Of a DNA stretch of 23,027 bases, positions 1,049-22,975 are shown one piece after another. The stretch spans positions 1 to 23,027 of the forward strand of contig PRDI01000023.1 in assembly GCA_003345595.1 (NCBI GenBank). Direction: 5' to 3'. The position numbers and the translations under genes are program-made. Position 1 is the first letter of the stretch. The number at the start of each line of letters is the position of its first letter. The DNA comes from Candidatus Thorarchaeota archaeon. Its GTDB lineage: Archaea; Asgardarchaeota; Thorarchaeia; Thorarchaeales; Thorarchaeaceae. The notes beneath the pieces are model-generated. The model saw only the letters and a list, made by a program, of their open reading frames with translations. It made no database searches and was not told the origin of the DNA.

Positions 1049-3835
1049 TCACAGTTCACCCCCATATGGGCCCGCCTCTGCCCAAGCAGCATTCAGCGCG
1101 GAGGCCATGTTCACTCTCGAACTCAGCAACGCCGTCAAGAGCGCGAAGACAGTGATTGAACCTAGGAATACAAGAAAGATAACGATCATTTGTAGCCAAG
1201 GAAGAACTATGGTGACACCTGCTGGGAAAAGATAGTAGCTAGTATGGTAGCCCACTAGGAGGTTCGTGATGAGTACCGGTGCAAAGAGTGTCAGAGTAAC
1301 TATGCTTGAGAGAGCCAGCACGATCATCTCAGCTCCCTGTGTCTTGACAATCAATCGCCTATCGGATCCCATGGCTCTCATCAACGCGACTTCGCGGCGG
1401 CGAGCTTGGATATCCTCGCTGGCATAGAGCAAGAAGCCGCCAGAAATGGTGGCAATCAACATTGCTGCCAGCATCGTGTCGACAGAACGGTCCATTCTAT
1501 AAGACGTCTGTTGAAGGTAGGCACTGACCTCTTTGGTCACAGATGCCCATTCGTTTCCCGTGATTACATCGATTCCACCACTGTCTAGAAGGCTTTGCCC
1601 AACCGCAGTTGAATTAGCGCCTTCCGTCGTCCTGACACAGTACAGGTTCTCTGCCCCGTGTGTCAGGTTCAGTTGGCTTTCAACAAAGGCTGCGTTCACC
1701 CAGATAGTATTCTTGCCCACTTCCATGGATCCCCAGTAGTATCCGTCAAGGAAGTATATCGGCCCATAGTAGGGTGTTTCATATCCTGTGTCTAGGAGCA
1801 ACCCGTTGGAGAGCGCCTCGGCTATCGCCACTACCGTGAGAGTGATAATCGTGGCTTCTCCGGTAGATTCGTCGAAGGCTCGAATCGTATCGCCCTCCTC
1901 CAATTCATAATCGGTTGCGATGTCAGCACTGACAATAGCTCCTGATAGGACGGAGTCCAATGTGAGTAGAGGCCCTCTTAGCGGCGAAGAGTTGAGGGGG
2001 CTGCCTTGATAATCATAGCCCACAGCCATGTACTCGACTGGATTCATGGCCACTAGACTCACTCCCTGATAGTCCATTGATGACATGGCTAGTGTGGCTG
2101 AAACTACGGACAGCTTCGTGCATGCCTCCACCTGAGGATGCAGAGTCACATTCGTAAAGAACTGATCCCATCGATCGCGTTCATAATTATCAAGATGGAA
2201 AGTGATTTCGGCGCCGAAGGCTAGTCTCGCTTGGTTCATCTTGGTCACAGGCATTGACGCACCGACGGCCGCAGAACCCCAGGCAAGCGAAATGGCTAGA
2301 ACCAAGACCACCGCGACAGGTGCCGCAGAGGATGCAGACTTCCCGATTCTCCTGACTCCCACCATTGACGGCACATATCCTGTTAATGAGGACATTGCAT
2401 GTGATAGCCTGTTTGCCCCACGTCTGAAGCCCTTCATGACAAGACTTGCCGCCCCGAGAAAGAGGGCATATGGGGCAAATCCGGATATGGCGTATAGAAC
2501 AGGATTAGTTTGAATCACGAAACCTGAAGAGTACATGGCCACCATCAACAATGATGCCAGGATCACTATGAGGAAGTCCCATCGTATGAAACGAAAGAGT
2601 GTCCAGACCCTTGCCAGTCTGCTGGTTTCTAGCTCAACGCTCTTCTTGGCTGAGTAAAGCATCTTGTATGCAAAGAAGACAATGGGCGGGATGAGTCCTC
2701 CAGCTAGGACCGAGAAGAATATTGACTCTATTGAAACCAAGAATGGTTCTTCCCAGATGAGAGAGAGGTTGAATTCGAAGAATCCCGTGGCTGCACAAGC
2801 AAATCTGCTTATCAGCAAGCCGATGCCCATTCCAACGAGGGTGCCCACAATAGTCATGCCAATCAGCTCCCGGAAGGCTATGTGTTGGATATCAGAAGAA
2901 GAGGCTCCTCTTGAAACAAGCATTTCGGACTCGTATCTTCGGTCATTGACATTGAACCTGATTGCCAAGAAGCACACGAGGCCTATGAGTAGCCCGACTC
3001 CTCCGCTTCTAGACACTTGGTTCAAACGAGCAGACATTTTCCACCACACATAGGAGTTGACGGCTTCTCCAAGTAGGTCGTACACGTAGTATGAGGAGCC
3101 GTACGGCAATCCGTAAAGCGGGTCTAGGCGCCGAATGCTTTCTTCAATACCTTGGAGAAAGCTAAGCGATGAGAACGTGTCATACGCGTTAACGTGGCTC
3201 CGGTCGACGTCCAGAATGGTCATTACTCGAAGGCTTGTCGAGTCAAGCAGGCTAGGCACAACTACTGCAATGTAGTAAGAGTAGTAGTAATAGTTGCCTC
3301 TACTCCACACGTCGGGATTCCCATATACGCCCACGAGCTGCAGAAGAGAGAATTGGATTTCATCTCCCCAGTACGTGTAGTTCACGATGTCCCCTGTCTG
3401 TGCACCAATCTCCTTTGCGACGCTAGTCTGAAGAGCTATCTCTGAGTCACTGACTGGAAACCTTCCCTCGTTGAGGACAAAGGCATCAGGAAACTCAGTG
3501 AATACATTTGCGTCTAAACTGACGACAGAGCCACCCCACTGGTAGTAGGAGGTTTTATTGGCTAGACTGACGTAGCCGGAAGATACGTCAATGGTAGCCA
3601 CCTTTTCAACGCCTTCGATGTTGGCGACCCGGTCCGCGATTTCCGTTTTGCCGGATTCCACAGTCATCGCAATCGGTCCGATGTCGATGACCGCATCCCA
3701 TTCGTGGATCGAGAACGAATCGACGTACGTGGTCACGCCCATGACCATTGCTGACGCAAGCACAAAGCAAAGCAGCGTTGCGGATTTCCTTCTGAGCCCA
3801 CCTGACAGTTCATAGCCTACCGGGAAGGCAGACAC
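1049..3835 (-). CDS. FtsX/MacB-family ABC transporter permease, duplicated two-module form (928 aa)
   Basis: N-terminal TM, two large extracytoplasmic domains, and two FtsX motifs (DRRYESEMLVSRGAS, ARRREVALMRAMGS), each followed by TM helices. Lies directly downstream of an ABC ATPase. Confidence 0.9.
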   Translation of the reverse strand: MSAFPVGYELSGGLRRKSATLLCFVLASAMVMGVTTYVDSFSIHEWDAVIDIGPIAMTVESGKTEIADRVANIEGVEKVATIDVSSGYVSLANKTSYYQWGGSVVSLDANVFTEFPDAFVLNEGRFPVSDSEIALQTSVAKEIGAQTGDIVNYTYWGDEIQFSLLQLVGVYGNPDVWSRGNYYYYSYYIAVVVPSLLDSTSLRVMTILDVDRSHVNAYDTFSSLSFLQGIEESIRRLDPLYGLPYGSSYYVYDLLGEAVNSYVWWKMSARLNQVSRSGGVGLLIGLVCFLAIRFNVNDRRYESEMLVSRGASSSDIQHIAFRELIGMTIVGTLVGMGIGLLISRFACAATGFFEFNLSLIWEEPFLVSIESIFFSVLAGGLIPPIVFFAYKMLYSAKKSVELETSRLARVWTLFRFIRWDFLIVILASLLMVAMYSSGFVIQTNPVLYAISGFAPYALFLGAASLVMKGFRRGANRLSHAMSSLTGYVPSMVGVRRIGKSASSAAPVAVVLVLAISLAWGSAAVGASMPVTKMNQARLAFGAEITFHLDNYERDRWDQFFTNVTLHPQVEACTKLSVVSATLAMSSMDYQGVSLVAMNPVEYMAVGYDYQGSPLNSSPLRGPLLTLDSVLSGAIVSADIATDYELEEGDTIRAFDESTGEATIITLTVVAIAEALSNGLLLDTGYETPYYGPIYFLDGYYWGSMEVGKNTIWVNAAFVESQLNLTHGAENLYCVRTTEGANSTAVGQSLLDSGGIDVITGNEWASVTKEVSAYLQQTSYRMDRSVDTMLAAMLIATISGGFLLYASEDIQARRREVALMRAMGSDRRLIVKTQGAEMIVLALSSIVTLTLFAPVLITNLLVGYHTSYYLFPAGVTIVLPWLQMIVIFLVFLGSITVFALLTALLSSRVNMASALNAAWAEAGPYGGEL

Positions 3836-3849
3836 CTCATTACCCCCTC

Positions 3850-4551
3850 TTACGTACTCCCTACTATGCGTCCATCCCTCATGGTATACACTTTGTCCAT
3901 CTGTTTGCCAACGTCTGGGTCGTGAGTCACAACGATCAGAGTTCCGCCTTCTCCTTTTGTAAGGCCGATCAGAACCCTCATCACGTCAATGCCCGTCTGC
4001 GTGTCTAGGTCACCTGTGGGCTCGTCTGCGAGGACCACGACAGAGCTCGTACTGCCCTTGGGCTTTGCAAGCGCACGTGCTATGGCCACTCGTTGTTGTT
4101 CGCCACCGGAAAGCTCGTCCGGCCTGTGCTCGGCTCTCTCAGCAAGGCCCACAAGACTCAGCAAATGATCAACCTTTTCCTTCCTCTCTGCTTCTGGAAC
4201 CCCGCTAATCAAGAGTGGCAGTTCGACGTTCTCGTATGCACTGAGGACGGGAAGCAGGTTGAAGAATTGAAACACGAAGCTGATCTTCTTCCTTCTGATG
4301 AGAGTCAGCTCACTCTCTGTCATGCCGGTGATGTCTATGCCATCGATGTAGACATGACCCTCGGACGGACGGTCTAGGGCCCCTATGAGATTGAGGAGGG
4401 TTGTCTTCCCACTGCCAGAAGGCCCCATTATTCCGATTGCTTCACCCCTCTCGACCTGAAGCGAAACCCCTCTGAGGGCTGGGACCTTAATCTCACCCAT
4501 TGAATAGACCTTTGACACTGACTCTAGGTTGACGATGATATCGTTGCTCAT
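3850..4551 (-). CDS. ABC transporter ATP-binding protein, LolD/FtsE/MacB-type
   Basis: Walker [10 protein letters not shown]-loop FVFQFFNL, signature [15 protein letters not shown], Walker [13 protein letters not shown]-loop VTHD. Likely start is ATG 4551 after GGGGGA; the track starts it at 4572. Confidence 0.95.
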
Positions 4552-4744
4552 CTTGTCCCCCACACTGAGCATATGACTGAGGTGTTTTCTCTCTTGGATT
4601 CATGTGCTAATAAGGAACATCATAGAAGAAGGCTCGTAGTCGTCAGAGTAACAGAAGCACTAGATTCCGGATGGTGAAACGAGAATCTTTATCTCTTCGA
4701 GATACATTCTCTGGTCATAGAATATATCGAGAGACTGAAGACGA

Positions 4745-5815: not shown

Positions 5816-7144
5816 TTATCGACCGGCAACTTTGATATAAAGCTCCGCTGCGGTCCTGAACACGTCGTCTACACCCTGTCCTGTCAAACAGGATGTCTCG
5901 ATGAAGGCAACTGGGTGTAGCTTCTCGGCTGACCCAAGCCTGACTGCAATGTCTTCAGCTAGTTTCAAGCCTTCTTCTTGAGAAACTGGAGGCTCTCGGC
6001 TGGTCAACAATGCTCCTGCCCGAAGGTCCGTCTTGTTCCCTACAATGACCATTGGTGGACGTTGTCCTGAAACTGCCATGCTCTCTTTGAGCCAGAACTC
6101 GACGCTATCGAAGCTCCATCGGTCCGAAGTGCTGTAGACAATGATGACAACACCTGTTGAGTCATAGAAGGACTTGCGTGTGATCTTGCAGTTGACGGCA
6201 GTGTCAAACGACCAAACTTGAAGCCTGACTCTGTGTGCATCAAGTTCGATTGTTCTTTCAGAAATGTAGGGCTTCTTGTCAGCTTCGTTCTCCGGTTCAT
6301 CCATCGGCTTGAGTCCCGCTCTCTGCATCAGTGATGACTTGCCCACTCCTTCTTCGCCAAGTATCAGTGCCTTCGCAGTTACGATCGGCTTTATGATTCT
6401 TGAGGGCGCCGGACCTGGCCTCCGCGGCTGTACGATGGTCGCCGCACCTTCGCCCGAAGCTCGAGTCGAGGCGGCAGCCTCGGGTGGTGTGACTCTGCCT
6501 GCTGTCTGCGTAGCCGCAGGACTGCCTGCCGCAACGCCCGGCACAGATTGGGATTGCGGAGTCGCCTTTGCCGATTCAAGCCGCTTTTCTTCCGCTGCAA
6601 TGGGTCCCGGAGTTCGTGTCTTGGGAGTCCCAAGTATCTCTTCAGTGCCAGATACCTCGATCTTGATTCCCGGCTTTTCCGTCGTAGAGGCCAGAGCCGA
6701 CTTGGGAGCAAGGAATGAGTCACTGAGAGACTCGACAGCACTCAGTGCCTCCTCAATATCCTTGAACTCAGTTCCTGAAACCACGCCAGCTGGGGCTGGT
6801 ACCGCTTTTCCGCTCGCCTCAACCGCATTGGCTTTGGGTATAGCGGCAGCTACAGTTGTGCCTTCAGGAGGTTTGGAAGCTATCTGTTCTTTGGGCTTCG
6901 GTTTCTCTATACTCTCTCTGGCAACTGGTGTGGGAACAAGAGTAGCAGAAAGATCGCTTGCATCTGCTATTATCATTTTTACCTGGGGTAAACCTATCTT
7001 CTCGAGCGTTCCCTTCAGCACACCGGGCGGCAGCAGCTTCCCCTCTGTTACGAAGTACGTTTCAACGTCAGCTAGGACCTCGTTGAATGACCTGTTGTTG
7101 GTCCTTATCTTCTTCTTGAGGACGCCCTTGTCTCTTACCTCCAA
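5816..7144 (-). CDS. Rab/Ras-superfamily small GTPase domain protein with an N-terminal domain and long Pro/Ala-rich linker
   Basis: C-terminal domain (5816-6373) has G1 GEEGVGKS, G4 VGNKTD, G5 ETSCL and Rab-like elements (LQVW, SFY..GVVIIVYSTSDRWSF). G2 and G3 are degenerate. The frame is open upstream to 7285, so the start may be further upstream. Confidence 0.88.
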   Translation of the reverse strand: MEVRDKGVLKKKIRTNNRSFNEVLADVETYFVTEGKLLPPGVLKGTLEKIGLPQVKMIIADASDLSATLVPTPVARESIEKPKPKEQIASKPPEGTTVAAAIPKANAVEASGKAVPAPAGVVSGTEFKDIEEALSAVESLSDSFLAPKSALASTTEKPGIKIEVSGTEEILGTPKTRTPGPIAAEEKRLESAKATPQSQSVPGVAAGSPAATQTAGRVTPPEAAASTRASGEGAATIVQPRRPGPAPSRIIKPIVTAKALILGEEGVGKSSLMQRAGLKPMDEPENEADKKPYISERTIELDAHRVRLQVWSFDTAVNCKITRKSFYDSTGVVIIVYSTSDRWSFDSVEFWLKESMAVSGQRPPMVIVGNKTDLRAGALLTSREPPVSQEEGLKLAEDIAVRLGSAEKLHPVAFIETSCLTGQGVDDVFRTAAELYIKVAGR

Positions 7145-18194: not shown

Positions 18195-18950
18195 CTATGA
18201 CTTGATGACTGAGTATACGTTCTGGATACAGCCAGTGAACTCACTCTCAGGATGTTTCAGAACCACGACGTATCTGCTGCCTGCCTCTATCAGTAGCTGA
18301 AGAAGAGGAATTATCGTCGCCACTTTGGTCTGGAACTTGTCCTCTACTTCTGCGATTATCGCCTTGTCCTCGTAGATACTCGGTTTCTTGTTTATGATGA
18401 TGCGGATATCAGGTACCTTGAGCTTCCTAGCCACACTAAGTGTGGCGGCTGTCCCCAAGAGGTCCTGTTCATCAATCCTTGCCACAACAAAAAGAAAGTC
18501 TGCGGTCGCCATGGACAGGAGGGTTTCTCGATCGAGGCCCGGATGTGTGTCGATGATCAGGTAGTCGAGGTTCTTCGCCTTTATCACATCAGTGAAGCCG
18601 CGCTTCAGGTCGCTGACCTCATAGCCCTCCCTCAGTATGCGGGTGATGTCAGTCGCACTCATCGAACTTGGAATAAGGAACAATTTACCCTGCTTGATAC
18701 CCAGCTGGCTTGTAAGATCCATGCAGGCGTCCGTGATATCGCATTCTCCCCTAAGGTAGTCATTCAGAGTGTACTTCAGCTTCTGTCGGCCCAGTCCAAA
18801 TATGACGTGTATCCCCGGAGATGCGACGTCAGTGTCCATCACAGCGACTCTCTTGCCATCAAGTGCCGCGATTGCTGCAAGGTTTGCAGCAATGTTGCTC
18901 TTACCGGTGCCTCCGCGGAAGCTGTGAATGCTCACTATGTCACCTGACAT
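18195..18950 (-). CDS. minD: MinD/ParA-family (SIMIBI) ATPase
   Basis: Deviant Walker A HSFRGGTGKS, A' DTDVASPG, Walker B IIDTHPG and IINK. The start overlaps the upstream stop by 11 nt. Confidence 0.88.
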   Translation of the reverse strand: MSGDIVSIHSFRGGTGKSNIAANLAAIAALDGKRVAVMDTDVASPGIHVIFGLGRQKLKYTLNDYLRGECDITDACMDLTSQLGIKQGKLFLIPSSMSATDITRILREGYEVSDLKRGFTDVIKAKNLDYLIIDTHPGLDRETLLSMATADFLFVVARIDEQDLLGTAATLSVARKLKVPDIRIIINKKPSIYEDKAIIAEVEDKFQTKVATIIPLLQLLIEAGSRYVVVLKHPESEFTGCIQNVYSVIKS

Positions 18951-20268
18951 GGGTCATCACCCTTTCATTCTCCCATCGAACATATTCCCCTAGGGAATGT
19001 AGAACTTCGAATATACGAGATGTCTGTATCTTGGTCTTGTCGGATATCTCCTTTATAGAGTAAGCGCCCGTGCAGTAACGCCACACGACATCAATCACTC
19101 CGAAGTCCTTCTTGGGCATTCCGACCACCTCCAGGTAGGCAGAGAAGCGTTCATTCCTCTCTTCCATCACCGGGAACAGTTTGGCGATGTGAGCGGCACC
19201 CTTTGATATGAGGTGGGCTAGCACTTCGTTTGTCTGTTCGCAGGAAAGACCCGCCTTTTCGTGCAGTTCCATCACTGTGATCTTCTCGTCAAGAAGCCCA
19301 AGAATCTTAACGGCATTTGTGCGGAGCTCTGCAGGCAGACCAGCCAATACGCGCTTTGAGGTGCTCATTACTCCCCCATCTTGGACGACTGGCAAAACAA
19401 CATCAAAGTCGTAGAAACCGGCCGTTTCTTCCAGACGTACTGGCTGGACCTTTTTCATGTTCCTCAAGTCGAGCTCGGAAACCATCCTCAGGTATGGTCC
19501 GACCAGTTTCATGAGTTCGGCATTGGACTTAGCTGCATTCACGACAAAAGCGGAGTAGATGTCGTTGTCCGTGCGCGTAATGAAGAATGATGTCAGAGGA
19601 TCGAGACTCGTGTGAACAGTCATGATTCCTTTGCCCGTTTGTGTTGTCAGACTGCCCAACAAATCGAGCAATGCTTCAAGCTCGTGTGCTCTCAGGTTCG
19701 AAGCCAAGATGAAACCGTCGCGAGTCACTGCTAAACTCCTCAGAACATCATGGCCCGTTTCAACGCTTGCCATTGCCAGCTTGAGTTGTTTCAAGTCCTC
19801 CCTCGGCAAGAGCCCTGTCTTGTATCGTCTTGCGAGCCCTGGGATGCCGTCGAACTTCTGAAGGAGCGCCTCCACTGTGTCGGTGAATGTCTTGAACATG
19901 CGAATGTCTGCTTGTTCCTTCTTCAGTTCTGAGTAGTACGTGCTGACAAACTGGTCAGAGAGGTCTCTCAGAAACACTCTGTATATCTCAGTGCTATCAT
20001 CCTGAGAAACGAGGGCCACGAAGAAGAGGTCTCCATTACGCTCCCAGACAAACTTGTTCGAAGCGAATGATACGACCCTAATACGCTGTTCGCCAACCTG
20101 TTCAGCGATTGAACCCATTGCGGATAGAAAAGCTGCGACCAGCTCGTCCAACTTCTTCGTGCCCGTCGCGCTGTAGTGAAACAGAGGAATGCCAGTGTCC
20201 CTGAGGATAATGACTTCTTTGACCAAGGTGTCTTCCCCGAATAGCGGCAGCAACCACTGCTTCTTCAC
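18940..20268 (-). CDS. Longin + roadblock-like + tandem winged-helix protein (NPRL2-like)
   Basis: Residues 16-140 show a longin pattern (IIL..TGIPLFHYS...LVAAFLSAM...F...Y...F..F). Residues about 155-265 show a roadblock pattern (SLAVTRDGFILAS). Two C-terminal wHTH-like repeats follow. Probable real start is TTG 20226. Confidence 0.8.
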   Translation of the reverse strand: MKKQWLLPLFGEDTLVKEVIILRDTGIPLFHYSATGTKKLDELVAAFLSAMGSIAEQVGEQRIRVVSFASNKFVWERNGDLFFVALVSQDDSTEIYRVFLRDLSDQFVSTYYSELKKEQADIRMFKTFTDTVEALLQKFDGIPGLARRYKTGLLPREDLKQLKLAMASVETGHDVLRSLAVTRDGFILASNLRAHELEALLDLLGSLTTQTGKGIMTVHTSLDPLTSFFITRTDNDIYSAFVVNAAKSNAELMKLVGPYLRMVSELDLRNMKKVQPVRLEETAGFYDFDVVLPVVQDGGVMSTSKRVLAGLPAELRTNAVKILGLLDEKITVMELHEKAGLSCEQTNEVLAHLISKGAAHIAKLFPVMEERNERFSAYLEVVGMPKKDFGVIDVVWRYCTGAYSIKEISDKTKIQTSRIFEVLHSLGEYVRWENERVMTHVR

Positions 20269-20322: not shown

Positions 20323-21258
20323 CTACTGGTCCTGCGCTACCGTGACCTCAACTAGTTTCCAGCTGACTGCGTTTCCAAGCCTACCCAGGACTTCAAAGAG
20401 CTTCTCCGCAGTCACACCAATCTTCTCACTGACCTCCACCACGGATTTGCTTCCGGTACATAGTGGTTTTGCCCGGTTGAGTATCTGATTGTCCTTACTG
20501 GGCAGACCCACAAGATCGAGATAGATGTCGAATCGAGCGTCTTCCTCTTGGAGCACTGGGCACATCTTGGATATTCCGACGACTCCCCATATGGTCAGGT
20601 ATTCGATGACCTCAGATATCTGCTCGGCTTCGAAACCTAGTGTCTGACTCATCTCGTAGATTGATATCTTACCGTCAATCGACTCAAGTATCCTGTTGCC
20701 AAACCCTCCGAAGTCTCTGTGAAACTGATCCAGAAGACCCATTGAGTCCGAAGCAGCATCGAATGCCAGCTGGTCCAATCTCGGCACGACGAACGAACTC
20801 AGGCTCGATGTAACTAGGAGTATGCCCTCATAGAAGGAGAATGACCTCTTGACCTCCTGCCCGAAATCCTCGAATGCATCCTCAACATGGATATCCTTCT
20901 TCAGTTCGCGCCCATATCGCGTTAGAAACCTGTGACTCAAATCTCTGAGTACAGCCCTCAAGACTCTCTCTGGTGCACCTGACTCCACGAGGAAAATGAA
21001 CAATGCTTCGGATTCAGTCTGATAGAGTATCTCCGAGCCTTCGAAGGAGAGGCTCTGAACGGAGCGTTCGCCGAATTCTGTGGCAAAGCTCGATATCGCT
21101 GATAGGAAACCCGACAACAGGCTGTCAAGTTTCCGCGTTTCATGAGGAGAATAGTGGAAGAGTGGAATGCCTCCTGAAGTTATGATCATGAACTCATTAA
21201 CGCGCAAGCGTCCGGTCAACTGCGGCATCTCCCGATTGAGCGTCAAAGGTGACGCCAC
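20323..21258 (-). CDS. Longin + tandem winged-helix protein (NPRL2/NPRL3-like paralogue)
   Basis: Longin pattern (MIITSGGIPLFHYS...LLSGFLSAISSFA) and wHTH repeats (ILESIDGKISIYEMS...YLTIWGVV; LCTGSKSVVEVS). Aligns without gaps to the N- and C-terminal parts of the downstream gene. Start uncertain within 21207-21258. Confidence 0.8.
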   Translation of the reverse strand: MASPLTLNREMPQLTGRLRVNEFMIITSGGIPLFHYSPHETRKLDSLLSGFLSAISSFATEFGERSVQSLSFEGSEILYQTESEALFIFLVESGAPERVLRAVLRDLSHRFLTRYGRELKKDIHVEDAFEDFGQEVKRSFSFYEGILLVTSSLSSFVVPRLDQLAFDAASDSMGLLDQFHRDFGGFGNRILESIDGKISIYEMSQTLGFEAEQISEVIEYLTIWGVVGISKMCPVLQEEDARFDIYLDLVGLPSKDNQILNRAKPLCTGSKSVVEVSEKIGVTAEKLFEVLGRLGNAVSWKLVEVTVAQDQ

Positions 21259-21281
21259 ATTAATGTATCTGAGAGGCCATA

Positions 21282-21292
21282 TCTATAATGGT
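21282..21292. promoter_or_regulatory. Candidate shared TATA element for divergent genes
   Basis: TCTATAATG on + and CATTATAGA on -, located between the divergent starts. Confidence 0.3.
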
Positions 21293-21349
21293 CCTGTCTA
21301 CGAAATGTCCATATTGCGGCCCGAGCGTGCACAGGGCCATCTTGCGTGT

Positions 21350-22975
21350 GTGACGAGCGTGCTCGAGTACAGAGAGTTCCCCATCAAGGTCGCGTTCTAC
21401 TATGTGCTTTTCTCTGCTATGCTTGCGTATGTCATATACTCAAGCAGCCGGCTGATTCTTGGTACCATGTTTCCCTCTTTCGGAAGCGGGAACTTGGGTC
21501 TCTTGGGATTCGGAATTCTGGCTGCTGTCCTCACTCTGTTGCCGGCCGGTGTCTTGGCAGATCACACGAGGTATCTGTATGTGATTAGTACGCTAGGTGC
21601 GTTAGCTCCGTTGCTTCTGGGTATGGCTATTGTGTTCGCAGGATCTCCCGGCCCAGACACTCCGACAATCGAAACCTCATTTACGATTCTTCTTTTCTCT
21701 GGAGCCGCTTTCTCTCTTGTGAGTTGGTGTGTTCAGCTAAACAAGACGGTCGTGGCGCGCTTTCGCGGCAGAGTCGCTGCCTCCTTCCTAGCAGTGTCCT
21801 TGGTAATCTTCGGAGTCTATTCTGCCTTGGATTCAGCCGGTTTCAGCCTGTACCTAATGCACATGCCAATTCCAGAGATTATAACCATTGCAGCAGTCCT
21901 CACACGACTTGCTTTCAGACCTTGGAGATGGTCACTGCACAAGCTAGCAGTCAAGGGGGAAGCAAGGTCTTACTTCATTCCGACGCTCCTTGTCATGGCT
22001 GCATACATACTCTGGTACTTCGGCACCCAACTGAGCATCAAAGAAGTGTTCAGGTTGGCCGTCGACCCCTCGTACGTTTCGCTCGGCCAGTATTCCGGTC
22101 TCTCCCTTTACGAGCCGGGGTTCATGGCTGTGGGTGTTGTATTCGCGGGACTGATAGCAGACACTAAGGGCAGAAAAACAGCTCTCACTTTCGGTGTTCT
22201 ACTGCTTGGCCTGCTATCGATCTTTGGTTCCCTTGCATATTACAATGCTGAGGATGGCTCTGCATACCTGAGTGCGGCTCCCCTGCTCATTTCTGAGCGT
22301 TTTGTTGAGGGCTTCCTTCTGGGTCTAATGCTTCTACTCATATGGGCCGAGCTGGGCTCTCCAAACACGAAGGGAAGACGCATTGCCGCCATGTGGATAT
22401 TCTTCATCGGATATATCGCTCTGTTGTTGGCTGTCTCGTTGGGGGTTTGGTTTGGCATCGACTGGTATGCACCAGATTGGGTGCGGCGAGCAGGGATACA
22501 GTTTGCAATCCTACTCACATTAGTCACATTGTACTGGTCAGCACCGCTACCTGAGATTCTGGGAAAGGAACTTGAGATGGAAGACCTTTCACTCGATTTC
22601 GATGAGAAGCTTGTCCGGCAGACTGCAGAGGCATTCGTGGGAGCAGAGGATCTCAAATCAATACGAAGCCAGCTTGATATTCTTGGCAGTACCGAAGAGC
22701 TGAGCGACAAGGATATGGATGAGATACTCGGCCCAGACTTCGACAAGACGCTTCCGTTGGGTGGAATCCCCGGCGTCGGTTCAAAGATGGAGCAACGCCT
22801 ACGAGAAGCCGGGTATGAGTCAGCTGCTCAGCTTGCTGGAGAAACCCCTCAGAGGCTGTCGGAAAAAGTGAAGGGTCTCACTCCGGCCAAGGCAGAGAAA
22901 ATCCTTGAAGGAGCACGGGTGGCCGTGAAGAAAGCGCTCAAGTCGAAGTCGAAAAAGGAAGGAGGACGAGGCTAG
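21350..22975 (+). CDS. MFS-fold 12-TM transporter fused to a C-terminal helix-hairpin-helix (RadA/Rad51 N-terminal-like) domain
   Basis: Twelve hydrophobic segments with MFS motif A in both halves (AGVLADHTR, AGLIADTKGRK) and RFRGR / TKGRR loops. An acidic linker leads to LGGIPGVGSKMEQRLREAGYESAAQLA...GLTPAKAEKILEGA. Start is probably GTG 21350 or ATG 21305; the track start at 21167 overlaps the divergent gene. Confidence 0.82.
   Translation: MTSVLEYREFPIKVAFYYVLFSAMLAYVIYSSSRLILGTMFPSFGSGNLGLLGFGILAAVLTLLPAGVLADHTRYLYVISTLGALAPLLLGMAIVFAGSPGPDTPTIETSFTILLFSGAAFSLVSWCVQLNKTVVARFRGRVAASFLAVSLVIFGVYSALDSAGFSLYLMHMPIPEIITIAAVLTRLAFRPWRWSLHKLAVKGEARSYFIPTLLVMAAYILWYFGTQLSIKEVFRLAVDPSYVSLGQYSGLSLYEPGFMAVGVVFAGLIADTKGRKTALTFGVLLLGLLSIFGSLAYYNAEDGSAYLSAAPLLISERFVEGFLLGLMLLLIWAELGSPNTKGRRIAAMWIFFIGYIALLLAVSLGVWFGIDWYAPDWVRRAGIQFAILLTLVTLYWSAPLPEILGKELEMEDLSLDFDEKLVRQTAEAFVGAEDLKSIRSQLDILGSTEELSDKDMDEILGPDFDKTLPLGGIPGVGSKMEQRLREAGYESAAQLAGETPQRLSEKVKGLTPAKAEKILEGARVAVKKALKSKSKKEGGRG

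Follow-up and report, generated by a model that had tools for sequence, protein, structure and literature searches.

What is a membrane carrier doing with a DNA-repair-type domain at its cytoplasmic end? The question is raised by a gene close to the right-hand end of a 23,027-nucleotide stretch of Candidatus Thorarchaeota archaeon DNA (GenBank assembly GCA_003345595.1, contig PRDI01000023.1, positions 1 to 23,027 of the forward strand), which was analyzed as a whole and is referred to below as the window. Carriers of the major facilitator superfamily (MFS) are among the best-known membrane proteins, and we found none described with a helix-hairpin-helix (HhH) domain of the repair type. In the protein encoded by the gene, which we call MFS-HhH, an MFS-fold domain is joined by an acidic linker to a RadA-N-like (HhH)2 domain, which is followed by a basic tail; the analysis described here confirms this architecture. 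The product is a genuine, conserved membrane protein of Asgard archaea, probably inherited vertically. Its HhH tail is undescribed and its MFS part represents a very divergent subfamily, and it belongs to a gene module whose soluble half has recently been described in silico.

Reading Frame and Conservation of the Fusion

MFS-HhH occupies a single open frame on the forward strand (21167–22975), with its stop codon 52 bases before the window end. Orthologues begin M-L-E-Y-R-E-F-P, with ATG, TTG or GTG at the equivalent codon followed by CTTGAGTA. Because orthologues begin at the matching codon, GTG 21359 was favored as the start, and the gene most likely runs from there to 22975 (+; 538 amino acids (aa) plus stop). 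There are two alternatives. ATG 21305 is common to one relative at 87% identity and would give 556 aa; GTG 21350 is the neighboring GTG from which a preliminary description of this DNA had begun the gene, and the orthologue alignment prefers 21359 to it. Residue numbers throughout are those of the 556-aa version (P0001, 21305–22972).

The fusion is widespread among relatives. At least 43 full-length homologues (514–571 aa, 42–87% identity) were collected, and all carry the Pfam domain HHH_5. Remote relatives retrieved with a profile of the membrane domain alone have the same C-terminal domain (P0060, P0063, P0065/P0070, P0066 and P0072), and P0064 is a 351-aa fragment of the P0072 cluster that lacks the C terminus. 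P0066 is annotated as originating from a metagenome-assembled genome of Hodarchaeota. When 400 genomes of the phylum were scanned, the fusion was present as a single copy in 74 of the 85 genomes of its own family (Thorarchaeota), in the one genome of the sister family and in 12 of 19 genomes of a Hodarchaeota-type family (f14). About 295 genomes from some 30 other Asgard families yielded no instance of it. The frame is continuous, with about 500–620 open codons and no internal stops, in 88 genomes and in many metagenome contigs, and the contigs bearing it include closed or very long ones. The worry voiced in the preliminary description, that the fusion might be an assembly artefact or be missing from relatives, can be set aside; the fusion is real and has been kept in two Asgard lineages. 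Its author also knew of no characterized protein with this architecture. We found none in sequence searches or in the literature, where inquiries about an HhH/MFS fusion or an Asgard longin/MinD module returned nothing specific.

The Membrane Domain

The divergent 12-transmembrane (TM) domain comprises residues 22–419 (21368–22561, +). An AlphaFold2 (AF2) model built from 26 homologues has a mean predicted local distance difference test score (pLDDT) of 76 and contains 12 confident TM helices. A Foldseek search with this model gave a probability of 1.0 and E values down to 6e-7, and the 49 best matches listed were all MFS chains; those named include VMAT1/2, PfHT1, SV2A, LmrP, GLUTs, MCT8 and YajR. 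VIA-align superposed the model on MFS structures with Z scores of 25–28 over ~350 residues and a root-mean-square deviation (rmsd) of ~4 Å. The same structural neighbors are only 10–17% identical to the membrane domain. As far as the fold is concerned, structure prediction settles the assignment to the MFS, with two six-helix bundles in the modeled protein.

Sequence models tell us much less. Pfam and NCBIfam gave no match within residues 1–480, and for the window protein there was no MFS match at E < 1. When 16 family members were scanned singly against Pfam MFS_1, one matched (E 0.0064), below the cut-off. MFS-HhH is absent from the 41 canonical MFS_1 matches of its own genome, and a family profile matched PDB sequences through its HhH part only. 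A search of 1.84 billion cluster representatives with the membrane-domain profile retrieved just 25 proteins, and it brought up no family from eukaryotes or bacteria. Within the MFS fold, MFS-HhH and its relatives are extremely divergent. When hhalign was run against nine canonical MFS proteins from this genome, the probability was 76% (E 2e-5; 0.5% for the reversed control); the match was anchored on the motif-A region after TM8, and the link is suggestive only.

That region holds the clearest motif. The loop after TM8 reads D286-T-K-G289-R290-K291 (22160–22177, +) and resembles MFS motif A. D286, G289 and R290 never vary, and K291 is conserved at 90% or more, across Thorarchaeota, Hodarchaeota and the P0060 relatives, and this stretch is the sole link to a true MFS_1 protein (P0068). 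Of the motif A pattern (G-x-x-x-D-[RK]-x-G-R-[RK]), these four residues are kept after TM8, and at the corresponding site after TM2 only D86 is retained. Ten residues are invariant even in the most distant relatives (R154, W207, Y223, D286, G289, R290, L345, W347, E349 and R359). D86, like K291, is conserved at 90% or more, and R154 is succeeded by G155 in all aligned sequences. All residues conserved across Thorarchaeota and Hodarchaeota lie on the cytoplasmic face, at MFS motif positions: D86 after TM2, R154-G155 after TM4, P-W207 after TM6, motif A (D286-x-x-G289-R290-K291) after TM8 and W347-x-E349...R359 after TM10, where the full pattern is W-x-E-x-G...K-x-x-R.

Loop charges were used to orient the protein. 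Lys and Arg residues number 14 on the inner side and 1 on the outer side, and on this ground both termini were assigned to the cytoplasm (N-in/C-in), which makes the tail cytoplasmic. The preliminary description had reached the same placement for the C terminus from general knowledge of MFS proteins. Its 12-TM MFS pattern holds as regards fold and motifs (AF2, Foldseek, VIA-align, family profile), not by Pfam thresholds.

The Cytoplasmic Tail

The tail begins with a linker of 65 residues (420–484) that contains 19 Asp/Glu and 7 Lys/Arg. About 65 acidic residues had been reported here; the length and the net acidity were right, and the segment is not acidic throughout. Its juxtamembrane part (residues 420–461; 22562–22687, +) is conserved. 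In an alignment of 28 tails from both lineages, E422, E426 and D433 are invariant, V437, S452, I453 and Q456 are conserved at 90% or more in both lineages, and the net charge of residues 420–461 lies between −4 and −14 in every sequence. This half was modeled as helical with low confidence (pLDDT about 50–63), as expected of a segment that might fold against a partner protein or the cytoplasmic side of the carrier. The full-length model has one β-bridge between V216 in the TM6–7 loop and L430 in the linker; local pLDDT is below 50 and the contact was not relied on. The second part (residues 462–484; 22688–22756, +) is an acidic insert specific to Thorarchaeota. Hodarchaeota-type relatives lack it and P0060 has a +9 basic block in its place, so auto-inhibition by the acidic linker, proposed earlier, is weakened as a property of the family. 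A RadA-type polymerization motif (F-x-x-A) was considered in the linker (A-F-V-G-A) and dropped, as its fourth position is not conserved.

The RadA/Rad51-N-terminal-like (HhH)2 domain (residues 485–540; 22757–22924, +) was identified by Pfam, profile and structure. Pfam HHH_5 covers residues 485–538 (22757–22918) with an E value of 4e-10 and 40.4 bits against a cut-off of 27, close to the limits first estimated (about 22751–22920). The family profile also matches the HhH repeats of topoisomerase (Topo) V and the N-terminal domain (NTD) of RadA. Modeled separately, the tail has pLDDT values of 86–91 in the HhH domain, which superposes on RadA/Rad51 NTDs with an rmsd of 0.9–1.1 Å over 55–58 residues at 29–42% identity; identity to the NTD of the same genome's RadA is 37%. 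The suspected RadA/Rad51 likeness is borne out on both counts, the Pfam score and the superposition. Hairpin 1 reads P-G-V-G, with G490 and G492 invariant in Thorarchaeota, and hairpin 2 reads K-G-L-T, of the G-h-S/T type also seen in RadA. There is no RecA-type ATPase core. NCBIfam RadA/Rad51 models match residues 485–547 only, with 12–26 bits against 259–478 (25.6 bits against a cut-off of 259 for the RadA model), and the protein ends 16 residues past the HhH domain.

Those last residues (541–556; 22925–22972, +) form the Lys-rich basic tail that had been described before, with a net charge of +6. A basic patch is always found near the HhH domain, although its position varies in the family. 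In most members it is the C-terminal tail (up to +13 in Hodarchaeota), in P0010 and P0011 it is the HhH domain itself, and in P0060 it is the insert. The HhH domain together with the adjoining patch is net positive in all members. Such a mobile basic patch, as judged from sequence, favors binding to a polyanion, which could be DNA, RNA or acidic lipid. The tail is also better conserved (52–67% identity) than the membrane domain (41–55%).

A search with the tail alone (residues 415–556) among proteins of 305–973 aa retrieved, at the sensitivity used, the same family only; shorter proteins were not searched. Complex prediction with the tail and the 294-aa and 442-aa longin proteins encoded next to it (see below) returned a score of 0.01, which is no answer and speaks neither for nor against binding. 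Other HHH_5 proteins of the same genome are soluble and of the repair type, and none has a multi-TM body. They comprise RadA and probable UvrC-, Hef/XPF-, Hel308- and ligase-like proteins, the latter recognized by eye from the end sequences of the open reading frames (ORFs). A further locus (L005, G000:C117:38241–41402, +) has a soluble frame of ~229 codons with an acidic N-terminal stretch and then an HhH domain. This domain is 35% identical to that of the tail over 71 residues, as near as the RadA NTD, and from its sequence the L005 protein is possibly the source or a sibling of the fused domain.

The Conserved Gene Neighborhood

The most informative fact about MFS-HhH, and one absent from the preliminary description, is its linkage to genes for longin–winged helix-turn-helix (wHTH) proteins and a ParA-type ATPase. 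The gene is separated by a divergent intergenic region of about 150 bp (21208–21358) from the first partner (20323–21207, −), a longin-wHTH protein of about 294–300 aa with weak Pfam matches to Fuz_longin_1, HTH_47 and TrmB. This protein has 249 homologues in Thorarchaeota (57–76% identity; mean column identity of 66% for the 300-aa protein), and its gene adjoins MFS-HhH in five loci (L001, L002, L003, L019 and L030). The second partner (18940–20268, −) is a 442-aa protein in which a roadblock-like insert lies between longin and wHTH domains. It is the orthologue of a 422-aa protein encoded beside MFS-HhH in Hodarchaeota (29% identity, E 3e-68), and strong orthologues occur in families f1, f2 and f14 only, the same three families that have MFS-HhH. 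The third (18195–18950, −) is a ParA/MinD-type ATPase (Pfam AAA_31, ParA and CbiA) with the Walker A sequence R-G-G-T-G-K-S. Replacement of the Walker A signature Lys by Arg defines the ConB2 assemblage of ParA proteins (Li, Burroughs, Aravind, bioRxiv 10.64898/2026.10.19.760177).

The arrangement was compared between lineages. In Thorarchaeota loci L001, L002 and L003, genes for ParA (250 aa), a longin-wHTH protein of ~430 aa and another of ~300 aa follow one another on one strand, all oriented away from MFS-HhH, which diverges from the ~300-aa gene. Hodarchaeota loci L016, L017 and L018 have ParA and the 422-aa gene in the same divergent layout, with a spacer of about 160 bp in loci of both lineages. 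ParA proteins of the two are 55% identical and share R-G-G-T-G-K-S with its Lys-to-Arg change; MFS-HhH proteins are 25% identical. The other flanks differ, with genes for TFIIB, URO-D, SfsA and a methylase in Hodarchaeota and for AOR, MTD, TackOD1 and FrhB in Thorarchaeota. In f14, MFS-HhH and the longin-wHTH gene are adjacent and divergent in 12 of the 12 genomes with a match. One Thorarchaeota genome (G335, 97% complete) lacks both MFS-HhH and the 442-aa orthologue. MFS-HhH therefore belongs to a gene module that Thorarchaeota and Hodarchaeota have both kept, together with longin(-roadblock)-wHTH proteins and a ConB2-type ParA. Alignment of five divergent intergenic regions from Thorarchaeota revealed no conserved operator-like DNA motif.

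Some loci depart from the standard order. In Thorarchaeota locus L019 a two-component system lies between the longin genes, and the 300-aa gene stays with MFS-HhH. The insertion (L019:3544–6739) encodes a HATPase_c protein, a response regulator and a PAS-rich histidine kinase, and splits the group into ParA with the 436-aa gene and the 302-aa gene with MFS-HhH. In the closed genome G368 of Thorarchaeota genus g12 (L030), only a 295-aa paralogue and ParA remain beside MFS-HhH. There (L030, G368:C1:2219000–2231000) the ParA ORF (6038–6664, −) has just 208 aa and is maybe truncated, and the 440-aa paralogue is absent. In genome G311 (L031), a 272-aa protein with a weak Arrestin_N match (E 4e-5; L031:4174–4992, +) is encoded beside MFS-HhH; the other neighbor is SfsA, which is also near the Hodarchaeota loci. 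A TackOD1-domain gene is convergent with MFS-HhH and lies just downstream of it in four loci (L001:9617–10549, L002:10903–11823, L003:10637–11524 and L019:10595–11536); the window ends before this position. In the region matching the 422/442-aa longin-wHTH protein, each of the four g42 genomes (G108–G111, in f14; for example G111:C122:3782–5053) has a single in-frame TAA, and G101 and G350 each have a single TAG. A boundary between genes, splitting of the gene or recoding could account for these in-frame stops.

Proposed Function and Alternatives

We consider it slightly more probable than an even chance that MFS-HhH is a transporter or sensor whose tail docks DNA, its ParA-wHTH partners or both at the membrane. 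The preliminary description had suggested a possible transceptor or membrane tether for DNA or RNA. In this proposal the MFS body would still pass through an alternating-access cycle, as a solute carrier or solute sensor, and the tail would act as a membrane-proximal docking platform. DNA might be held at the membrane through the HhH domain and the basic patch, and the DNA-binding ParA and longin-wHTH partners might be held there by the tail. Either of two outcomes could follow: solute or membrane state would be linked to the ParA-type ATP switch, or ParA would position the MFS-HhH membrane protein over the nucleoid. Within this proposal, canonical DNA binding by the HhH domain seems to us to fall a little short of an even chance, and a mainly protein-binding role is a lesser, though serious, prospect.

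Several observations weigh against the docking proposal. In Hodarchaeota neither hairpin keeps the G-h-G pattern (they read G-V-S/T/D and L-S-V-P) and the HhH domain carries almost no net charge, which on sequence grounds makes it less likely that the domain originally served for canonical binding to the DNA backbone. Since the membrane domain stays below threshold for all Pfam MFS models, transport activity is extrapolated from the fold and motifs. Polar residues in mid-membrane (H234, E331, R332 and E335) are conserved within Thorarchaeota only, so that no substrate can be proposed. In genome G311 of family f2, MFS-HhH is unlinked from the pair formed by the 430-aa longin protein and ParA. 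Finally, synteny among Thorarchaeota may reflect shared ancestry. Since related genomes are not independent observations, independent support for the linkage amounts to essentially one comparison, Thorarchaeota against Hodarchaeota, together with the coincident phyletic pattern.

Two of these points, the degenerate Hodarchaeota hairpins and the unlinked gene of G311, also favor a simpler explanation, in which MFS-HhH is an ordinary solute transporter, the HhH domain regulates or oligomerizes the carrier through protein–protein contacts, and the ParA and longin-wHTH neighbors are unrelated or merely co-regulated. The retained MFS fold and gating motifs are consistent with this, and MFS carriers with an additional C-terminal domain in the cytoplasm do exist (for example YajR, PDB 3wdo, Z 26.5). 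We nevertheless regard a plain carrier as unlikely. Linkage to orthologous partners survives between two distant lineages despite their different flanks, the phyletic patterns coincide, and it is the tail, not the membrane domain, that is the better conserved part of the protein.

A second alternative is that MFS-HhH is the membrane sensor or effector arm of an immune system directed against selfish elements, in which the HhH domain would intercept incoming foreign DNA at the membrane for ParA and wHTH proteins to coat. One part of the ConB2 assemblage is a "ParA-wHTH system" known mainly from archaea. Its wHTH may be joined to a profilin/longin-like domain, and the system was predicted in silico to coat invader DNA as a form of rapidly evolving immunity (bioRxiv 10.64898/2026.10.19.760177). 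The same study describes membrane-fused ParA variants within ConB2 and small non-specific DNA-binding modules (HeH, HhH) as recurrent partners of ParA; its main text mentions no MFS protein, no HhH partner for the ParA-wHTH system, and no Asgard archaea. The neighboring ATPase here carries the ConB2 Lys-to-Arg signature, and the combination of ParA with longin-wHTH proteins agrees with the description of that system. A type IIG-like methylase/restriction gene follows MFS-HhH in Hodarchaeota loci L016 and L017. Against this, the module occurs as one copy per genome, is found in nearly all members of the family and has a fixed place among housekeeping genes (AOR, MTD, FrhB, GTP cyclohydrolase II and TFIIB), its proteins are well conserved and not fast-evolving, and PADLOC had no match for MFS-HhH or the longin proteins. 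An immune role is in our judgment improbable.

The last alternative, an assembly or gene-calling artefact joining a membrane-protein gene to a separate HhH gene, has practically no chance of being right: it is refuted by the conservation of the fusion and its uninterrupted frame in 88 genomes, and no stand-alone tail was seen among the 305–973-aa proteins searched (shorter ones were not covered).

What is at stake depends on the tail. If it does bridge membrane, DNA and the ParA switch, as the docking proposal would have it, this would be a new archaeal way of coupling membrane or solute state to the nucleoid, or of positioning a membrane protein, and it would offer a testable handle on those Asgard longin-domain proteins that have no adjoining small GTPase. 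If the tail does no more than regulate the carrier, the outcome is modest: a new and very divergent MFS subfamily.

Other Features of the Window

Two further loci lie at the far end of the window. A 442-aa protein (5816–7144, −) has a Ras/Roc/Arf-like small GTPase domain at residues 258–434, and its N-terminal ~250 residues have no Pfam match. A 928-aa FtsX-type permease (1049–4572, −) is encoded beside an ABC ATPase, as a MacB-like pair. A similar FtsX/ABC pair is located downstream of the module in L019 (11720–15353).

Comparison with Known Systems

The membrane domain resembles MFS carriers such as VMAT2, MCT8, SV2A, OCTN2 and Spns1/2 in its 12 TM helices, two six-helix bundles and motif-A-type loop, and it differs from them in its low sequence identity (10–17%) and in that no Pfam MFS model reaches its threshold. 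E. coli YajR is similar in overall plan, with an MFS body followed by a cytoplasmic C-terminal module. However, the YajR module (YAM) is ferredoxin-like, as opposed to the RadA-type (HhH)2 domain with acidic linker and basic patch seen here, and no sequence relationship was detected between the two proteins. The yeast glucose sensors Snf3 and Rgt2 are likewise MFS bodies with long signaling C-terminal tails; theirs are disordered, in contrast to an (HhH)2 module, and again no sequence relationship was detected.

For the tail, the closest counterparts are the NTDs of RadA and Rad51 (HHH_5, rmsd ~1 Å), with the HhH repeats of Topo V also similar. In MFS-HhH the RecA-type core is missing, and the HhH domain is attached at the C-terminal end of a membrane protein. 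ComEA and Noc are membrane-associated, non-specific DNA binders, and thus share with the proposed docking tail the pairing of membrane attachment with a non-specific DNA-binding module. ComEA, an (HhH)2 protein with a single TM helix, binds DNA on the extracytoplasmic side; Noc resembles ParB and attaches through an amphipathic helix. Both lack a 12-TM carrier body, and we saw no sequence match to either. A ComEA-type receptor, with a single N-terminal TM helix and an extracytoplasmic (HhH)2 domain, does not describe MFS-HhH, which has 12 TM helices and a cytoplasmic C terminus; no ComEA model appeared among its Pfam and NCBIfam matches.

The neighbors fit the published ParA-wHTH system in the Lys-to-Arg change of ParA and in the longin-wHTH proteins, both of which have weak longin and wHTH matches in Pfam. 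The module differs from that system in being conserved, syntenic and single-copy, and in having a membrane-HhH partner that was not described there.

Hodarchaeota stand close to the proposed eukaryotic stem, and eukaryotes offer a last point of comparison. SLC38A9 pairs with Rag-Ragulator. The solute carrier PQLC2 recruits a longin-type GTPase-activating protein complex, C9orf72-SMCR8-WDR41, to the membrane (PMC12290439). These systems employ Rag or Arf GTPases, as opposed to a SIMIBI-class ParA, their carrier families are unrelated to ours, and partner binding in the archaeal module is hypothetical. What they would have in common with it, by analogy only, is a solute carrier combined with longin/roadblock regulators of an NTPase switch. 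A long shot, in our view, is that MFS-HhH serves as the receptor (transceptor) of an Asgard module for nutrient or membrane state. Its tail would recruit the longin/roadblock-wHTH proteins and ParA, the HhH and wHTH domains would carry a DNA output to the nucleoid, and the whole would be a prokaryotic counterpart, possibly a forerunner in logic, of SLC38A9-Rag-Ragulator/GATOR1 and PQLC2-C9orf72-SMCR8.

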